A stretch of DNA of 64,000 nucleotides from Eledone cirrhosa (Eukaryota). Numbering within the stretch: the stretch's first letter is position 1; the number at the start of each line of letters is the position of its first letter. Both the position numbers and the translations under genes were made by a program. The stretch is from NCBI GenBank assembly GCA_964016885.1, contig OZ024763.1, positions 30,318,001-30,382,000 of the forward strand, given 5' to 3'. Of this stretch, positions 16,068 to 62,250 are shown piece by piece. The notes beneath the pieces are model-generated. The model searched no databases. It worked only from the letters and a program-made list of their open reading frames with translations, and was not told the DNA's origin.

Positions 16068-16295
16068 TATTAAAATAACAGATTAAAGTTTAAGCAAAGA
16101 ATCGCTGCTTTCACCCTTAACGGGATCTTCTGTTTCAGAAGTTTCAGAAGATCCCGTTTAAGGGTGAAAGCAGCGATTCTTTGCCTAAACTTTAATCTGT
16201 TATTTTAATAAATATTTGCTCTACGGTTCTTATATATTTGATATATATTTATCCTTATCGAGCCCTCTTTGGATTTTAGTCTTCAAATTTATTAT
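16068..16295 (+). mobile_element. Fold-back PLE-like element with degenerate hammerhead
   Basis: Near-perfect inverted arms 16068-16132 / 16145-16210; CAGAAGA-tccc...gggt-GAAA in the right arm; AATAAA and a unique tail follow; flanked by (TA)n. Confidence 0.6.
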
Positions 16296-16299
16296 TATT

Positions 16300-18830
16300 A
16301 CTATATATATATATATATATATATATATATATATATATATATATATATATATATATATATATATATATATATACATACATATATATATATACATACATAC
16401 ATACATACATATATATATACATACATATATATATATATATACATACATATATATATATATATACATATATATATATATATATACATACATATATATATGT
16501 ATACATACATATATATATATATATATATATATATATATATATATATATATATATATATACATATATATATATATATATATACATACATATATATACATAC
16601 ATATATATATATACATACATATATATATATACATATATATATATATACATATATATACATATATATATATATACATATATATACATATATATATATATAT
16701 ACATATATATACATATATATATATATAAATACATATATAAATACATATATATATACATATATATATATATACATACATATATATATATACATACATATAT
16801 ATATATATACATACATATATATATATATACATACATACATATATATATATACATACATATATATATATATATATATATACATACATACATATATATACAT
16901 ACATATATATATATACATACATATATATATATATATATATATACATACATACATATATATACATACATATATATATACAGACATATATATATATATATAT
17001 ATATATATATATATATATATATATATATATATATATATATATATATACATACATACATATATATATACATACAGACATATATATATATATATATATATAT
17101 ATATACATACATACATATATATATATATATACATATATATATACATATATATATATATACATATATATACATATATATATTCCATTATAATATACTATTA
17201 TATACATATATATATATATATATATATATATATATATATATATATACATACATATACATATATATATATATATACATACATATATATATATACATACATA
17301 TACATATATATATATATATATACATACATATATATATATATATACATATACATACATATATATATATATATACACACACAGTACATAAACAAGCTACCTT
17401 CATTTCCAATATAGATTCCCCTTAATTATTGTAATGTACTTCCATTGTCTCAGATTCTGAAGAAAGGGAAAAATATCGACAGACAAAACTGAACGAAGCA
17501 ACAGTATGTATATATACACACATATATATACATGTATATATATATATATATATATATATATATATGTGTGTGTGTGTAATCAGTGTGGAAAATGGATGCA
17601 AAATGGTGATGGTATATATATATATATATATATACTTATATACTATGGAATACTGTTGGCTTTTTGCTTCAATGTTTTTCTATACCTTTCATTTATATAT
17701 ATATATATATATATATATATATATATATATATATATAAATAAATATATATGTGTATGTGTGTGCGTGTGGATGTATATGTATGTGTGTGTATATACATAT
17801 ATAATCAGTGTGTGGAATATGGATGCAAAAAGGTGATGGTATATATATATATATATATATATATATATATAAATACATATATATATATATAGATATATAT
17901 ATATATATAGATAGATATAATATATATATATATATATAGATAGATATAATATATATATATATATATATATATATATATATATATATATATATATATATAT
18001 ACATATATAGACACACACACACATATATATAGATAGATATAATATATATATATATATATATATATATATATATATATATATATATATATATATATATAAA
18101 TACATATATAGACACACACACATATATATATATATAGATAGATATAATATATATATATATATATATATATATATATATAAATACATATATAGACACACAC
18201 ACATATATATATATATATAGATAGATATAATATATATATATATATATATATATATATATATATATATATAATACATATATAGACACACACACACACATAT
18301 ATATATGTATATATATATATACATATATATATATATATATATATATATAATGAAGGAGGAAACTGGAAGAATATATACAAAATTAAGGAAAAAATAGAAA
18401 TGCTTCCAGAGGCATTCTATTGACACACACACGTGTGTGAGTGTGTGTGTGAGTGTATATATGTGTGTGTCTGTGAGTATATATGTGTGTGTGAGCATGT
18501 GCGTATGTATATATGTAAATATATATATATATATCTGTGTGTATATATGTGTGTGTTTATGTGTATATATATATATATATATATATATATATATACACAC
18601 AATAAATATACTATGTATATATATATATATACCTATATACATACATAAATGTGTATGCGTGTTCGTGCATACATATATATATATATATAAATATATATAT
18701 ATATATTTATATATATATATATATATATATATATACACACACACATATATATATATATATATATATATATATATATATATATATACACACACACACACAC
18801 ATATATATATACATATATATATATATATGC
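16300..18830. repeat. (TA)n/(TACA)n/(TG)n microsatellite field
   Basis: Almost continuous dinucleotide repeats; source of the YI-rich ORFs. Confidence 0.95.
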
Positions 18831-19144
18831 CAGCAGGGTAAATCAGTCATGTGATGAGGAGGTGGGGGGGGGATGATGATGATGATGATAGACAAAATGT
18901 GCATGCACACGTGTGTGTGTATTTATGTGTGTGTGTGAGTATGAGTGTGTGCATCTGTTTGTGTGTGTTTCCGAATGTGTTTCGGGGACATCTTATAAGA
19001 AGTACTGCTCAACAAAGCCATACAGTAGTAAGGTATTGTACGTTAAACAATTTACTTCACTCCCTTCACATAATATTCTTTCTCTCTCTCTCTCTCTCTC
19101 TCTCTCTCTCTCTCTCTATATATATATATATATATATATATATA

Positions 19145-19460
19145 TAATAATATATAAGATCAAAAGATGGTTAAAAGAGTTCCATGTATTTTATTATGCG
19201 CATTTCAAAAACAATTATCATCATGCAATAACATTTGCGTTTTCGTCTATTACTATCTCCCTATTTTATCTGACGAAAACGCAAATGTTATTGCATGATG
19301 ATAATTGTTTTTGAAATGCGCATAATAAAATACATGGAACTCTTTTAACCATCTTTTGATCTTATATATTATTATTTATACTCCAGTCCTACAAACTGTA
19401 GAGTGCTACTTATCCGATATCTGCATTGCTTTATTGTACTACAATAAAACTCACCTCCTA
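19145..19460 (+). mobile_element. Fold-back PLE-like element, family B
   Basis: Inverted arms of about 103 bp (19145-19247 / 19272-19374), an HHR in the right arm, a unique tail with gtaGAGTGC (19401), and (TA)n on both sides. Confidence 0.85.
19262..19332 (+). ncRNA. Type I hammerhead ribozyme (family B)
   Basis: tattttat-CTGACGA-helix II-GAAA-tgcgca-TA-ataaaata; perfect 8-bp helix I and palindromic helix III. Confidence 0.9.
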
Positions 19461-19565
19461 CATATATATATATATATATATATATATATATATAGATAGA
19501 TAGATATATAGACATATATATATATATATAATATAAGATCAAAAGATGGTTAAAAGAGTTGCAAG

Positions 19566-19636
19566 TATTTTATTATGCGCATTTCAAAAACAAATATCAT
19601 CATGGGATGATATCTGCGTTCTCATCAGATAAAATA
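19566..19636 (-). ncRNA. Type I hammerhead ribozyme (family B)
   Basis: Minus strand: tattttat-CTGATGA-gaacgcagatatcatc-ccat-gatgatatttgttttt-GAAA-tgcgca-TA-ataaaata. Confidence 0.9.
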
Positions 19637-59810: not shown

Positions 59811-60080
59811 ATAGTTATGTAATAAACAACATAAGGCAATTATTCCATTTACCAGTGGTTTCTTAAAAGAAAAAAATTTTGCTTTCAATCATCAGAATGA
59901 AAAAATCCTAGGCACCAGGATTTTTTCATTCTGATGATTGAAAGCAAAATTTTTTGCTTTTAAGAAACCACTGGTAAATGGAATAAATGCCTTATGTTGT
60001 TTATTACATAACTATTAAGCTCTGTTACCTACATAGAGCACTCTTTTTTCCTGGACTTTTCCGACGGAATTACTTCATTC
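59811..60080 (+). mobile_element. Fold-back element with two intact divergent hammerheads
   Basis: Arms 59811-59909 / 59917-60015 with a 7-nt loop; HHRs at 59843-59902 (-) and 59924-59983 (+): tttcatt-CTGATGA-ttgaaagcaaa-attt-tttgcttttaa-GAAA-ccactgg-TA-aatggaa; tail with taGAGCAC. Confidence 0.88.
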
Positions 60081-60680
60081 ATATATATACATATATATAT
60101 ATATAAATAAACTCATTGCTAGAACAGCCATTAAAACAACTAAATGCTGTCAAAGACGGTGATGGGCAAAAATACCTCAGAGGACCAGATTGACCAGTGA
60201 CCAGTGGTCAATAGAGAGACAATACTGGTAGCATTCAGGATATATTGTTAAACTGTGATGTAACATACCTGAAACCCCAAGGTGAGAAACTGGAATGTAC
60301 GTACCTGAAATTAAGATGAAAAAATAATAATTAAACAATCATTTACAAATACAATCTATACAAAATATACATAGTTATATATATACACATACATATATAC
60401 ATACATGTTCTAGTGGTAGCAGAGAGAAACAATCGACAACTGTTTCAGGGTTATTGCCCTTTGTCAAGATTGTGTATGCCTCCTTTTTCTGCTACCCACT
60501 TTTTGAGACTTATCAGTCATTTAGTATATATCTCACAAGGCTTATATATATATATATATATATATATATATATATATGTAAACTTTTATATATATATATA
60601 TACATACACATACATATACGTGTTTTGCAACAGGTCATTTTGTGGCTCAATGAAAAATTAATAAATTAAACAATCAGAGC

Positions 60681-61160
60681 TATATATCATAAAACATGCC
60701 TATAGAGTCACAAGATAAAATATATACTATTTCCTCTCCCAATTAGCATAATTAACTATATAAAAAATCGAATAGACCAGGTTATAAGAATGAGGCTTCT
60801 ATGAAGGAATCTCCGACAAATAACCGAAACCAGCCCTTCGCGTCGGCCGTAGCGGAATATTTATCGAATATTTCGACAGCGTAATCGCCTAGATACAGTC
60901 AACTAAACAGAATTAGGTTTAAAATAAACTAGGAGAAAATAGAATACATTTAAATACCTCTACCATGGTTTCATCCGTGTTTTGAGTTTTCCAATAATTA
61001 TGTAATAATTATATAAACTCGAGCGCCGGATTCTTCAGGAAGCTCGCTCATATCTAGACATTAAATTTTCCAAAGCGATCGCGCCAAGAATTCAGTTCAA
61101 AATGGCTAAAAATCGTATATATTTTATCTTGTGACTCTATAGACATGTTTTATGATATAT
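60681..61160 (-). mobile_element. About 480-bp element with about 45-bp terminal inverted repeats and an internal hammerhead
   Basis: tatatcataaaacatgcctatagagtcacaagataaaatatatac / gtatatattttatcttgtgactctatagacatgttttatgatata. Confidence 0.7.
60956..61043 (-). ncRNA. Type I hammerhead ribozyme with extended helix II
   Basis: Minus strand: gcttc-CTGAAGA-atccg...gagttt...aaactc...cggat-GAAA-ccatgg-TA-gaggt. Confidence 0.87.
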
Positions 61161-61197
61161 ATATATATATATATATAATGCTAGTAGAAAATCAAGG

Positions 61198-61282
61198 GGT
61201 CCGACGAGCCGCAGATTACAGGGTCGGGTAAGATCGATACAGATCAAACCTTGAGCTGATCAGTGGCGAAACGTGCGTCACC
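61198..61282 (+). ncRNA. Hammerhead ribozyme, U4C core variant, extended helix II
   Basis: ggt-CCGACGA-gccgcagattacagggt...accttgagctgatcagtggc-GAAA-cgtgcg-TC-acc; AATAAA at 61287 and tcGAGTGC at 61388. Confidence 0.78.
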
Positions 61283-61914
61283 AACCAATAAACGTAATGA
61301 AGGAGTAACCAATCGTCCTTGTTATCTTTTCACTATACTACACTCTGTCTAGCTCTACACCTCCACACTGATGTGAATCTAAACATCGAGTGCTCACCCG
61401 GGTGAACCTACAGTAACTCCAAATTACACTCCCTGGATATATATATATATATTCCTAAATGATGATGTATGTGTGTATATGTGTGTGTGTAATTTATTTA
61501 CAAATCCAGGGCATGTTTTTAATATTTTGTTTCTAACTTCTAACAAAAATTTTGCTTTTAATTAGATTTTTTTAAGTATTTCGTAAAATTTAGGAATAAA
61601 ATAAAATAAAATATAAACAACAAAATCCACTTTAATTGGTGTATATATAATTATCTACTTAATATATGTAAGTAAACACATAAACATATAGTGTCAAGTT
61701 CAGAGTATATATATATATGTGAGTGTGTGTGTATATATATATATATATATATATGTATGTATATATATATATATATATATATATATATATATATATATAT
61801 GTATATATATATATATATATATATATATATATATATATATATATATGTATATATATATAAATATATATATGTATGTATATATATATATATATATATATAT
61901 ATATATATTATGTA

Positions 61915-62250
61915 GATAAATCTACCAAGAGTTTACGGTAGTGTCCAATCCGTATGAAGAACTCAATGTATTCCGGATATCATGGAAAGAAGAGATGTAA
62001 TGAAAATCCAATTTCGGTGAAAGATAAACGGTATACAGAGTGAAGATAAAATATTAAATAAATAATGAACAAACAATTCCTTATATTAAACAAAAAAAGT
62101 TCACTATTTAACGATCGTTTCTAGGGTATATATGTTAAATATGCATACCAATTATAGCACATATATACCCTAGAAACGATCGTTAAATAGTGAACTTTTT
62201 TTGTTTAATATAAGGAATTGTTTGTTCATTATTTATTTAATATTTTATAT
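61915..62250 (-). mobile_element. Fold-back PLE-like element retaining only the 3' half of an HHR
   Basis: Arms of about 90 bp at 62046-62135 / 62159-62250 containing cccta-GAAA-cgatcg-TT-aaatag; unique tail extends to the left. Confidence 0.7.

Follow-up and report, generated by a model that had tools for sequence, protein, structure and literature searches.

The window analyzed here, a stretch of 64,000 nucleotides (nt) of Eledone cirrhosa DNA (assembly GCA_964016885.1, contig OZ024763.1, positions 30,318,001 to 30,382,000 of the forward strand), carries hairpin inserts. A plain inverted-repeat search was swamped by (TA)n; when simple repeats were masked beforehand, a self-comparison of the window yielded 16 hairpins whose arms are non-repetitive, measure 24-109 nt and contain 0-3 mismatches; 15 of these represent hammerhead-type repeat families (A to J, counted as nine), while one represents a short interspersed nuclear element (SINE)-like repeat. 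In each insert, the tail-less arm ends at a fixed site (X) and the tailed arm continues to a second fixed site (Y), both located in (TA)n; the tail sequence and the two fixed 3' ends are specific to each family. The hairpins are remnants of Penelope-like elements (PLEs), of the Hydra type where an open reading frame (ORF) was seen. An earlier reading of the window's letters, referred to here as the original prediction, had proposed a PLE origin with an inverted partial pseudo-long terminal repeat (pLTR) plus a tail, and this proposal is supported by our data; all 12 hairpins that it named are among the 16, and one arm was confirmed to stop at (TA)n with the other continuing into a tail, which is family-specific.

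Exact tail-end junctions in the genome numbered 9,048 for family A, 23,631 for B, 5,556 for C, 95 for D, 784 for E and 13,683 for H. Family A represents the 3' end and pLTR of an endonuclease-bearing PLE, with long arms that lead into the 3' untranslated region (3'UTR), the endonuclease (EN) and the reverse transcriptase (RT), and 208 family A copies continue from the tail into the ORF. At one locus (L081) RT motifs, linker, EN, 3'UTR and pLTR follow one another, with one ORF carrying a C-terminal GIY-YIG-type EN, and at another (L463) the ORF starts approx. 100 nt past the tail. A CxCX5C linker of the CNCPVKNKCPL type is present in many family A copies; related linkers at loci of families B (L187, L224), H (L381, L382, L390) and E (L293) are tied to those families by position in the locus only. 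The family A EN (CNLCLNEK...INRR...CLH) shows CxxC and CxH around a conserved E and N, with CCHH absent as judged by eye, and the L463 translation contains RRLRWI and HSDKT, i.e., RW is kept with the K of RWK replaced by I, and DKT replaces DKG. A Pfam search of three family A ORF fragments matched no RT or EN family. Among 114 family A tail ends examined, no case without a TA-type flank was encountered. For families C, D, F, G, I and J, which show the same anatomy, a link to a Hydra-type ORF is putative, with ORF fragments located near some C and D loci. At one locus (L082:2492-4170, minus strand) a family A insert is adjoined by a further PLE, of a different type with a YVDD RT, a Cys-rich linker and a GIY-YIG EN; PLE families accumulate in the same TA tracts.

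The hammerhead core boxes and helices in the pLTRs were found by pattern and by eye, and are thus predicted structures with putative cleavage activity. Minimum free energy folding recovered the three-way junction for family B and partly for D, while it did not for A, E and F; in an Rfam scan of the window, no hammerhead family was among the 150 of 442 matches listed, nearly all of which were microRNA-type and below gathering scores. Non-LTR retrozymes are head-to-tail tandem hammerhead units with no ORF, whereas the inserts of the window are single head-to-head units and family A continues into an ORF. The motif match suggests that these elements belong to the Hydra clade or are closely related to it. 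Like the C-terminal EN+ PLEs of that clade (Craig et al. 2021, PMC8557442), they combine an RT, a CxCX5C linker, an EN with CxxC/CxH around E and N and an RW near the N-terminus with (TA)n targets, a pLTR hammerhead and an inverted 5'-truncated copy plus tail. The tails are 68-90 nt long here as compared to 30-40 nt in the Hydra clade, and, unlike in that clade, several families show minimal cores or core variants, such as U3-A8 in family B and CAGAAGA in family H.

Copies of six families were collected by tail end alone, to avoid seeing hairpins only, and their arms were mapped on natural long copies, with positions counted from the predicted cleavage site. The first breakpoint passes over-extended arms via palindromes or stopped at subfamily differences, and the arms were remapped; an earlier family A search, which favored long arms, was kept out of the rates, and a k-mer break scan was rejected as confounded by subfamily variants and a loose family E motif. 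The mapped set comprised 304 tail-primed arms (89 from A, 100 from B, 29 from C, 30 from D, 26 from E and 30 from H), an identical-context filter having removed four of the 30 family E arms and one of the 30 family C arms. The stops of 110 of these arms fall within a 14-nt window at an initiator (Inr)-like A that is specific to each family, hereafter the +1 window. Per 1,000 nt at risk, 56.8 stops occurred in the +1 window (110 stops), as compared to 2.67 in the tail (48 stops), 3.56 from X to the cleavage site (28), 3.99 in the hammerhead outside the +1 window (39) and 3.56 upstream (34); 45 of the 304 arms pass position -200, i.e., run more than 200 nt upstream. Of the arms that reached it, those stopped in the +1 window were 23/47 in A, 59/64 in B, 13/20 in C, 8/16 in E, 4/14 in H and 3/19 in D. 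The +1 window is located at -124 in A, -141 in E, -45/-41 in B, -45 in C, -46 in H and, weakly, -63 in D; relative to the fold, the hot-spot A precedes the core by 69 nt in family A and by 91 nt in family E, and lies in loop II in B and at the first base of helix I in C and H. Genome-wide, a non-native base directly precedes the +1 18-mer in 4,510 of 13,171 family A arms, in counts from two patterns that share one A/T filter 14 nt upstream, and 98 of the first 100 listed arms with a non-native base were true breaks by eye.

The original prediction had placed the strand switches inside or just 5' of the hammerhead, and had explained them by RT or second-strand synthesis that stalls at the folded ribozyme and switches, on an uncleaved, re-ligated or circular RNA. 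Breakpoint mapping of the six families upheld the non-uniformity of the breakpoints, but assigned the cluster to a narrow family-specific site, whose position is within the ribozyme in some families but at a distance of 70-90 nt from it in others. Stalling as the main cause is improbable, as stops in the hammerhead outside the +1 window were not significantly more frequent than downstream (2.9 per 1,000 nt; ratio 1.36, P = 0.12) or upstream. At a stem, RT would be expected to pause on reaching the 3' foot. The hot spots of B, C and H do lie within or at the edge of the ribozyme, but past the copied 3' strand of the local stem, as is always the case, and the place of the hot spot relative to the fold differs among families, being well 5' of the core in A and E; in addition, neither a stall nor a circle provides a source for the extra G described below. 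Two further observations fit the explanation given by the original prediction, i.e., a peak at the cleavage site of family B, whose stable helix III has its foot 1-2 nt away, and long copies that read through +1, as a circle allows; circles have been proposed for such elements (PMC4209133).

The apparent tie of junctions to the hammerhead can be attributed to the distance from +1 to the tail end, which is 130-280 nt, much of it ribozyme, and to families B, C and H starting in loop II or at the first base of helix I. Moreover, a hairpin is detectable only where both arms overlap, and visible hairpins are biased toward the ribozyme because tailed arms often stop in the tail (24/173 two-armed inserts) or run more than 200 nt upstream (45/304). 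In 135 short inserts with a visible hairpin, the shorter arm ends in the +1 window in 88, elsewhere in the hammerhead in 30, at most 60 nt 5' of the hammerhead in 13 and elsewhere in 4. The +1 window, together with the small distance between X and +1, accounts for the pattern described in the original prediction.

Within the window, an arm ends in the +1 window in seven of the ten named hairpins that could be mapped. Four family B inserts carry such ends, at 22664..22836 (-41 and -37, in loop II; right arm interrupted by other sequence), 31771..31960 (both at approx. -39 to -36), 38228..38425 (tail-less arm to approx. -44) and 52953..53146 (approx. -40 and -37), as does the family C insert at 29603..29772 (tail-less arm to -37, tailed arm to -24). 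In the family H insert at 16063..16300, the tailed arm (16140-16300, plus strand) starts at the putative +1 (16140), the tail-less arm occupies 16063-16132 (minus strand) and a 9-nt reiteration is present at the junction; the core at 16132 reads CAGAAGA rather than CUGANGA. The family D insert at 59811..60080 has arm ends at -60 and -63, in a weak family cluster. Three family inserts end short of +1: at 19143..19461 (family A; minimal hammerhead core 19270-19316, plus strand; tail to 19461) the arms end at -53 and -69, at 36850..37141 (family A; tail broken by a SINE-like repeat) at -87 and -97, with a filler that contains two short copies of the +1-adjacent segment, and at 44012..44293 (family E) the tail-less arm (to -88) exceeds the tailed arm (to -11) in length. 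For all ten family-mapped named hairpins, the switch lies in the hammerhead or at most approx. 45 nt 5' of helix I, as had been described, and comparison with long copies places those at 44752 and 62135 in helix II. The former belongs to a family F insert (44569..44898, left limit approximate), in which the tail-less arm comprises the whole hammerhead (core 44793) and the tailed arm stops in helix II, and the latter to a family G insert (61912..62245, limits approximate), in which the switch lies within a very long loop II.

Extending this rule to all hairpins fails, as three of the four left out of the original prediction misfit. The hairpin at 43257..43355 (junction at 43306) lies in a SINE-like repeat in which no hammerhead was seen, and two inserts are counter-examples that switch approx. 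100-150 nt 3' of a core seen in long copies, i.e., a family J insert at 43845..43996 (switch at 43949-43950, 135-156 nt 3' of the core) and a family I insert at 58440..58587 (limits approximate; switch at 58532, approx. 100 nt 3'). The fourth, a family B hairpin at 58108..58192, has arms to -40 and -24. Family A is also represented by two single tail-less arms, both on the minus strand, at 19537..19690, extending nearly to the +1 site, and at 59163..59327, with a hammerhead (core 59263-59217), and by a two-armed insert at 21326..21528 with a tail-less arm to -58 and a tailed arm that stops at +39, i.e., an inversion with no duplicated arm and hence no hairpin.

The Inr consensus is YYANWY. The base at +1 is an A in this context in families A, B, C, E and H, while D does not match; the motif occurs at approx. 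3% of positions. In family A, G was found just 5' of +1 in 2,145 of the 4,510 arms with a non-native base, against an expected 19.9%; 42 of the first 100 listed rows had a G by eye, 22 of which could not be explained by the partner arm. Family H presented 2,031 arms with a non-native base at +1, and G in 65 of the first 100 listed (41 not explained by the partner arm), with a lone G between TA repeats and +1 in several rows and G on both arms in several, all as judged by eye; a pattern search for the lone G after TA gave only 3 matches and was little informative. In filler junctions of the mapped sample (family B excluded), the first base was G in 15 of 27 arms ending at +1 as compared to 8 of 49 ending elsewhere (P = 6 × 10-4). 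Single cases of the extra G were seen in C, and double-G junctions, with one G per arm and differing filler, recur in A and H. These data suggest that the hot-spot A is a Pol II (RNA polymerase II) start site, with run-off at the capped 5' end, and that the extra G is likely a reverse-transcribed 7-methylguanosine (m7G) cap. In LINE-1-type copying, an extra G is a trace of the copied m7G cap, with full run-off leaving an untemplated G (PMC4038843), and transcription starts inside the pLTR in Penelope (PMC2377424) and Chlamys-3 (PMC8557442, section 10).

Other kinds of RNA end could also produce a fixed 5' limit, i.e., the branch adenosine of a lariat, a processing site, or the border of a few transcribed truncated or hairpin master copies. 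The +1 context in A, B and E also resembles a branch-point consensus. PLE pLTRs do contain introns, one of which ends at helix I in D. virilis (PMC4209133). On the other hand, the arms contain the A itself, no constant upstream exon or flank is found beyond the break, where fillers vary, and family A subfamilies approx. 6% apart use the same base, which makes such an origin quite improbable.

By eye, approx. 11 of 100 G rows showed tandem re-copies at the junction of the first 8-11 nt past +1 (e.g., C1:123807505, C1:198676194; window 16132-16149 and 36965-37005); these resemble realignment and re-extension at a template 5' boundary, as with telomerase. Family H (16140-16205; L397), with its 13,683 tail ends, shows a type I hammerhead-like fold in which U4 is changed to A by the core variant and activity is putative; its helix I starts exactly at the putative +1, as in family C. 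Splicing was rejected as the origin of this core variant, as the junctions are explained without it.

Two-armed inserts (n = 173) were grouped by relative arm length: the tail-less arm was longer in 41, the tailed arm stopped in the tail in 24, the tailed arm was longer in 22, both were equal in 85 and both ran far in 1; for the other 131 of the 304 tailed arms no tail-less arm was mapped in range. The 41 and 24 inserts (65/173) cannot have arisen by snap-back of one tail-primed complementary DNA (cDNA) and require that X, like Y, served as a priming site. In 19 family A inserts, the paired arms show 1.4 differences per 134 nt, as compared to 8.3 between inserts, and in 43 family B inserts 1.1 as compared to 2.7 per 48 nt; both arms thus share one subfamily variant and derive from one RNA or one source locus.

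Snap-back, by which a single cDNA folds back on itself after reaching the 5' end of the RNA or halting before it, so that the second arm is DNA-templated by self-priming, is compatible with a start-site hot spot and differs only in the making of the second arm. It would account for the equal arms of 85 of the 173 inserts, for the near-identity of arms and for the perfect palindromic apices, which are common (7 events by eye in the first 100 listed family A rows), and palindromes at inverted junctions have been interpreted as self-priming before (PMC3846280). We nevertheless consider it unlikely, as it fails for the 65 inserts with a longer tail-less arm or no duplicated arm, as double-G junctions with 1-6 nt of non-palindromic filler are hard to form by fold-back, and as both strands are extended in vitro (PMC11167929).

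A different course of events is probable, judging from the junctions as a whole. Two cDNAs would be primed from the two cut strands of the (TA)n target, at two fixed internal start sites (X and Y), and both would run off the likely capped 5' end of an uncleaved linear sense RNA begun in the pLTR; they would then be joined head to head, presumably via short homologies and filler, sometimes with a cap-derived base. Two RTs could copy one stretch by displacing a strand, by using a dimer of two RNAs or by using two copies of the pLTR. An uncleaved template, which the original prediction had already favored, is supported for most short inserts and has an in vitro precedent in Poseidon_Ac (PMC11167929), while the circular or re-ligated RNA it also considered is disfavored for arms that end at +1 with a G and possible for long copies that read through +1.

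Four loci (L132, L168, L182 and L347) carry a tail at both ends of the insert, i.e., both strands are able to start at Y. Native sequence across the family A tail end is TA-like, and a common end class retains one extra native T, a hint that primer and template match over a short length at Y. Some family B junction fillers are runs of 15-17 identical A or T (L183, L259, C1:157491055). A pile-up of tailed arms at the first start site, as might result from two colliding RTs, was weakly hinted at in family A only (8 of 89 arms at +34 to +47), and no claim is made.

Several observations weigh against run-off of two cDNAs at a capped end. Three of the ten mapped named hairpins (19247, 36975 and 44074) have no arm ending in the +1 window, the 85 two-armed inserts with arms of equal length are compatible with snap-back as well as with two cDNAs, and the small excess of stops in the rest of the hammerhead may reflect a stall effect. 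The sample consisted of the first listed matches on the largest contigs rather than a random drawing, the +1 windows were defined after inspection of the data, and, as the hammerhead contains those of B, C and H, their exclusion discards part of what the original prediction meant. With regard to the extra G, 11 of the 42 family A G rows were possibly templated by the partner arm and 9 were single-base junctions readable either way (by eye), no G excess was present in the filler junctions of D (0/4) and E (0/1) in the mapped sample, and in B the G was hard to test, being blurred by two starts 4 nt apart and by subfamily variants. Long family A copies do not conform either: 70 of the 208 body-continuing copies were taken, and among the 60 left after 10 with an identical 250-nt context were dropped, 1 of the 32 that reach the +1 window stops there, as compared to 23 of 47 tail-primed arms (P = 5 × 10-6). 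A simple full-length template capped at +1 does not predict such read-through.

The template of the long copies would be continuous across +1, whether as a tandem transcript, as a cut and re-ligated circle, or through cap transfer to a 3' pLTR. A circle would thus be wrong for the capped short arms and viable for the long copies. It is conceivable, though on balance doubtful, that PLEs make a retrovirus-like strong-stop cDNA, with two internal starts just behind a capped 5' end and the cap copied, and that the product is either sealed as a hairpin, giving tens of thousands of short inserts, or continued via transfer to a 3' pLTR or a ribozyme-cut, re-ligated circle. If so, the strong-stop route would regenerate the pLTR, the inserts would document PLE start sites and germline hammerhead cleavage across the genome, and promoters inside or at the edge of the ribozyme would let the 5' copy escape self-cutting.

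Family B combines a stable helix III with a U3-A8 core, a hammerhead variant described previously (PMC4209133), and shows a second, smaller class of arm ends. Genome-wide, 632 family B arms leave native sequence exactly at the predicted cleavage site (approx. 90 of the first 100 listed being true breaks by eye), as compared to 188 at +1 relative to that site (approx. 70/100 true), 153 at -1 (many of which are site-0 joins via a G run), 1,047 at +4 (only 7-9/100 true) and 56 at -6 (approx. 40 true). The resulting enrichment, roughly 4-7-fold over neighboring positions, is approximate, as each pattern excludes a different base and the +4 pattern has a longer prefix. Both arms end at the cleavage site in approx. 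13 events of the first 100 listed rows. In the mapped sample, 4 of 100 family B arms stop within 3 nt of the cleavage site, and in the small samples of the other families such stops numbered 0 in A, 1 in C, 0 in D, 0 in E and 0 in H. The peak may result from a pause at the helix III foot, 1-2 nt away; as its position suggests, however, a few per cent of family B arms likely ran off ribozyme-cut, un-religated RNA. A transcript starting in loop II would lack the core, so that the cleaved RNA would come from read-through transcripts or from cutting in trans. That so sharp a peak coincides with the predicted cleavage site in the only family whose helix III is stable may be a trace of hammerhead cutting in the germline.

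Inverted repeats in (TA)n are difficult to assemble, and fold-back chimeras are known from sequencing libraries. An assembly or library artefact is nonetheless very improbable, given fixed family-specific outer ends and tails, diverged arms, filler bases and thousands of copies, and it is largely refuted for families A and B by raw Illumina reads of restriction site-associated DNA (three runs, one study). In these, opposite-strand joints at -124 were found for family A (79, 89 and 111 reads from 2-3 starts), and 14 of 15 listed joints of family B had one side at -31 to -45, with depth falling more than 40-fold beyond -45. The raw reads thus support the joints of these two families as such, as distinct from the individual loci of the window. 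Raw-read end peaks at 1649 and 1636, which possibly reflect read length or a restriction site, were left unused.

In LINE-1 twin priming, two primers at one break lead to an inversion, with each cDNA made from a different part of one RNA. The two cDNAs proposed here would mostly cover an identical stretch, each from one of two fixed internal starts, and would thereby produce a duplication. The Poseidon_Ac system in vitro (Frangieh et al. 2024, PMC11167929) is similar in that two internal RT starts define the tail, both strands are nicked and extended, and unprocessed RNA is the main template; the insert layout and the uncleaved template were therefore already known. The accessible text of that study does not address cDNA ends and arm joining and reports no RNA reads ending at the cleavage site, whereas family B shows a genomic peak there. 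Head-to-head arms, junction palindromes and an Inr-like TCACT in a pLTR were described by Arkhipova et al. 2013 (PMC3846280), where self-priming on an antisense template was proposed, whereas polarity counts and the sense-arm G here favor two cDNAs from a sense, likely capped RNA. The circular-template model for PLEs and non-LTR retrozymes (PMC4209133; bioRxiv 10.64898/2026.07.22.740005) shares with our data type I minimal hammerheads and long partial-tandem copies that read through the pLTR, but the short hairpins here are non-tandem and have a fixed 5' end, often behind a G, which a circle lacks. The Hydra clade account (PMC8557442), in its accessible parts, contains no 5' junction map, cap-like G or cleavage-site peak.

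No earlier account of start-site hot spots with a cap-like G, of a cleavage-site peak or of the contrast with long copies was found in a literature search made mostly without subscription papers and without the supplementary figures of PMC11167929 and PMC8557442; as far as searched, these three features are new, while the inverted arm and tail are not. How PLEs finish insertion, why pLTRs are inverted, how they are regenerated and whether the hammerhead cuts in vivo are left open in the accessible parts of PMC8557442, PMC11167929 and PMC2377424. The present analysis predicts, to the base, where the RNA starts in five families (A, B, C, E and H); the likely cap-copy signature points to a linear sense template for the short class, and the separate long class passing +1 adds a further testable constraint. 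The junction statistics can be applied to any genome rich in PLE copies.

Three minor observations concern individual repeats. In family G (61912-62245; L083, L169) hammerhead loop II is approx. 100 nt long, and the L083 hairpin has its apex within the core. A family F hairpin (L078, G000:C24:30238001-30248000) located approx. 120 kb away from that at 44667-44893 shares identical arms and junction with it but has a partly missing tail, and the pair represents either a local duplication or an assembly repeat. At 1842-3200, the window also contains approx. 10 tandem copies of an approx. 127-nt unit derived from a SINE-like repeat.

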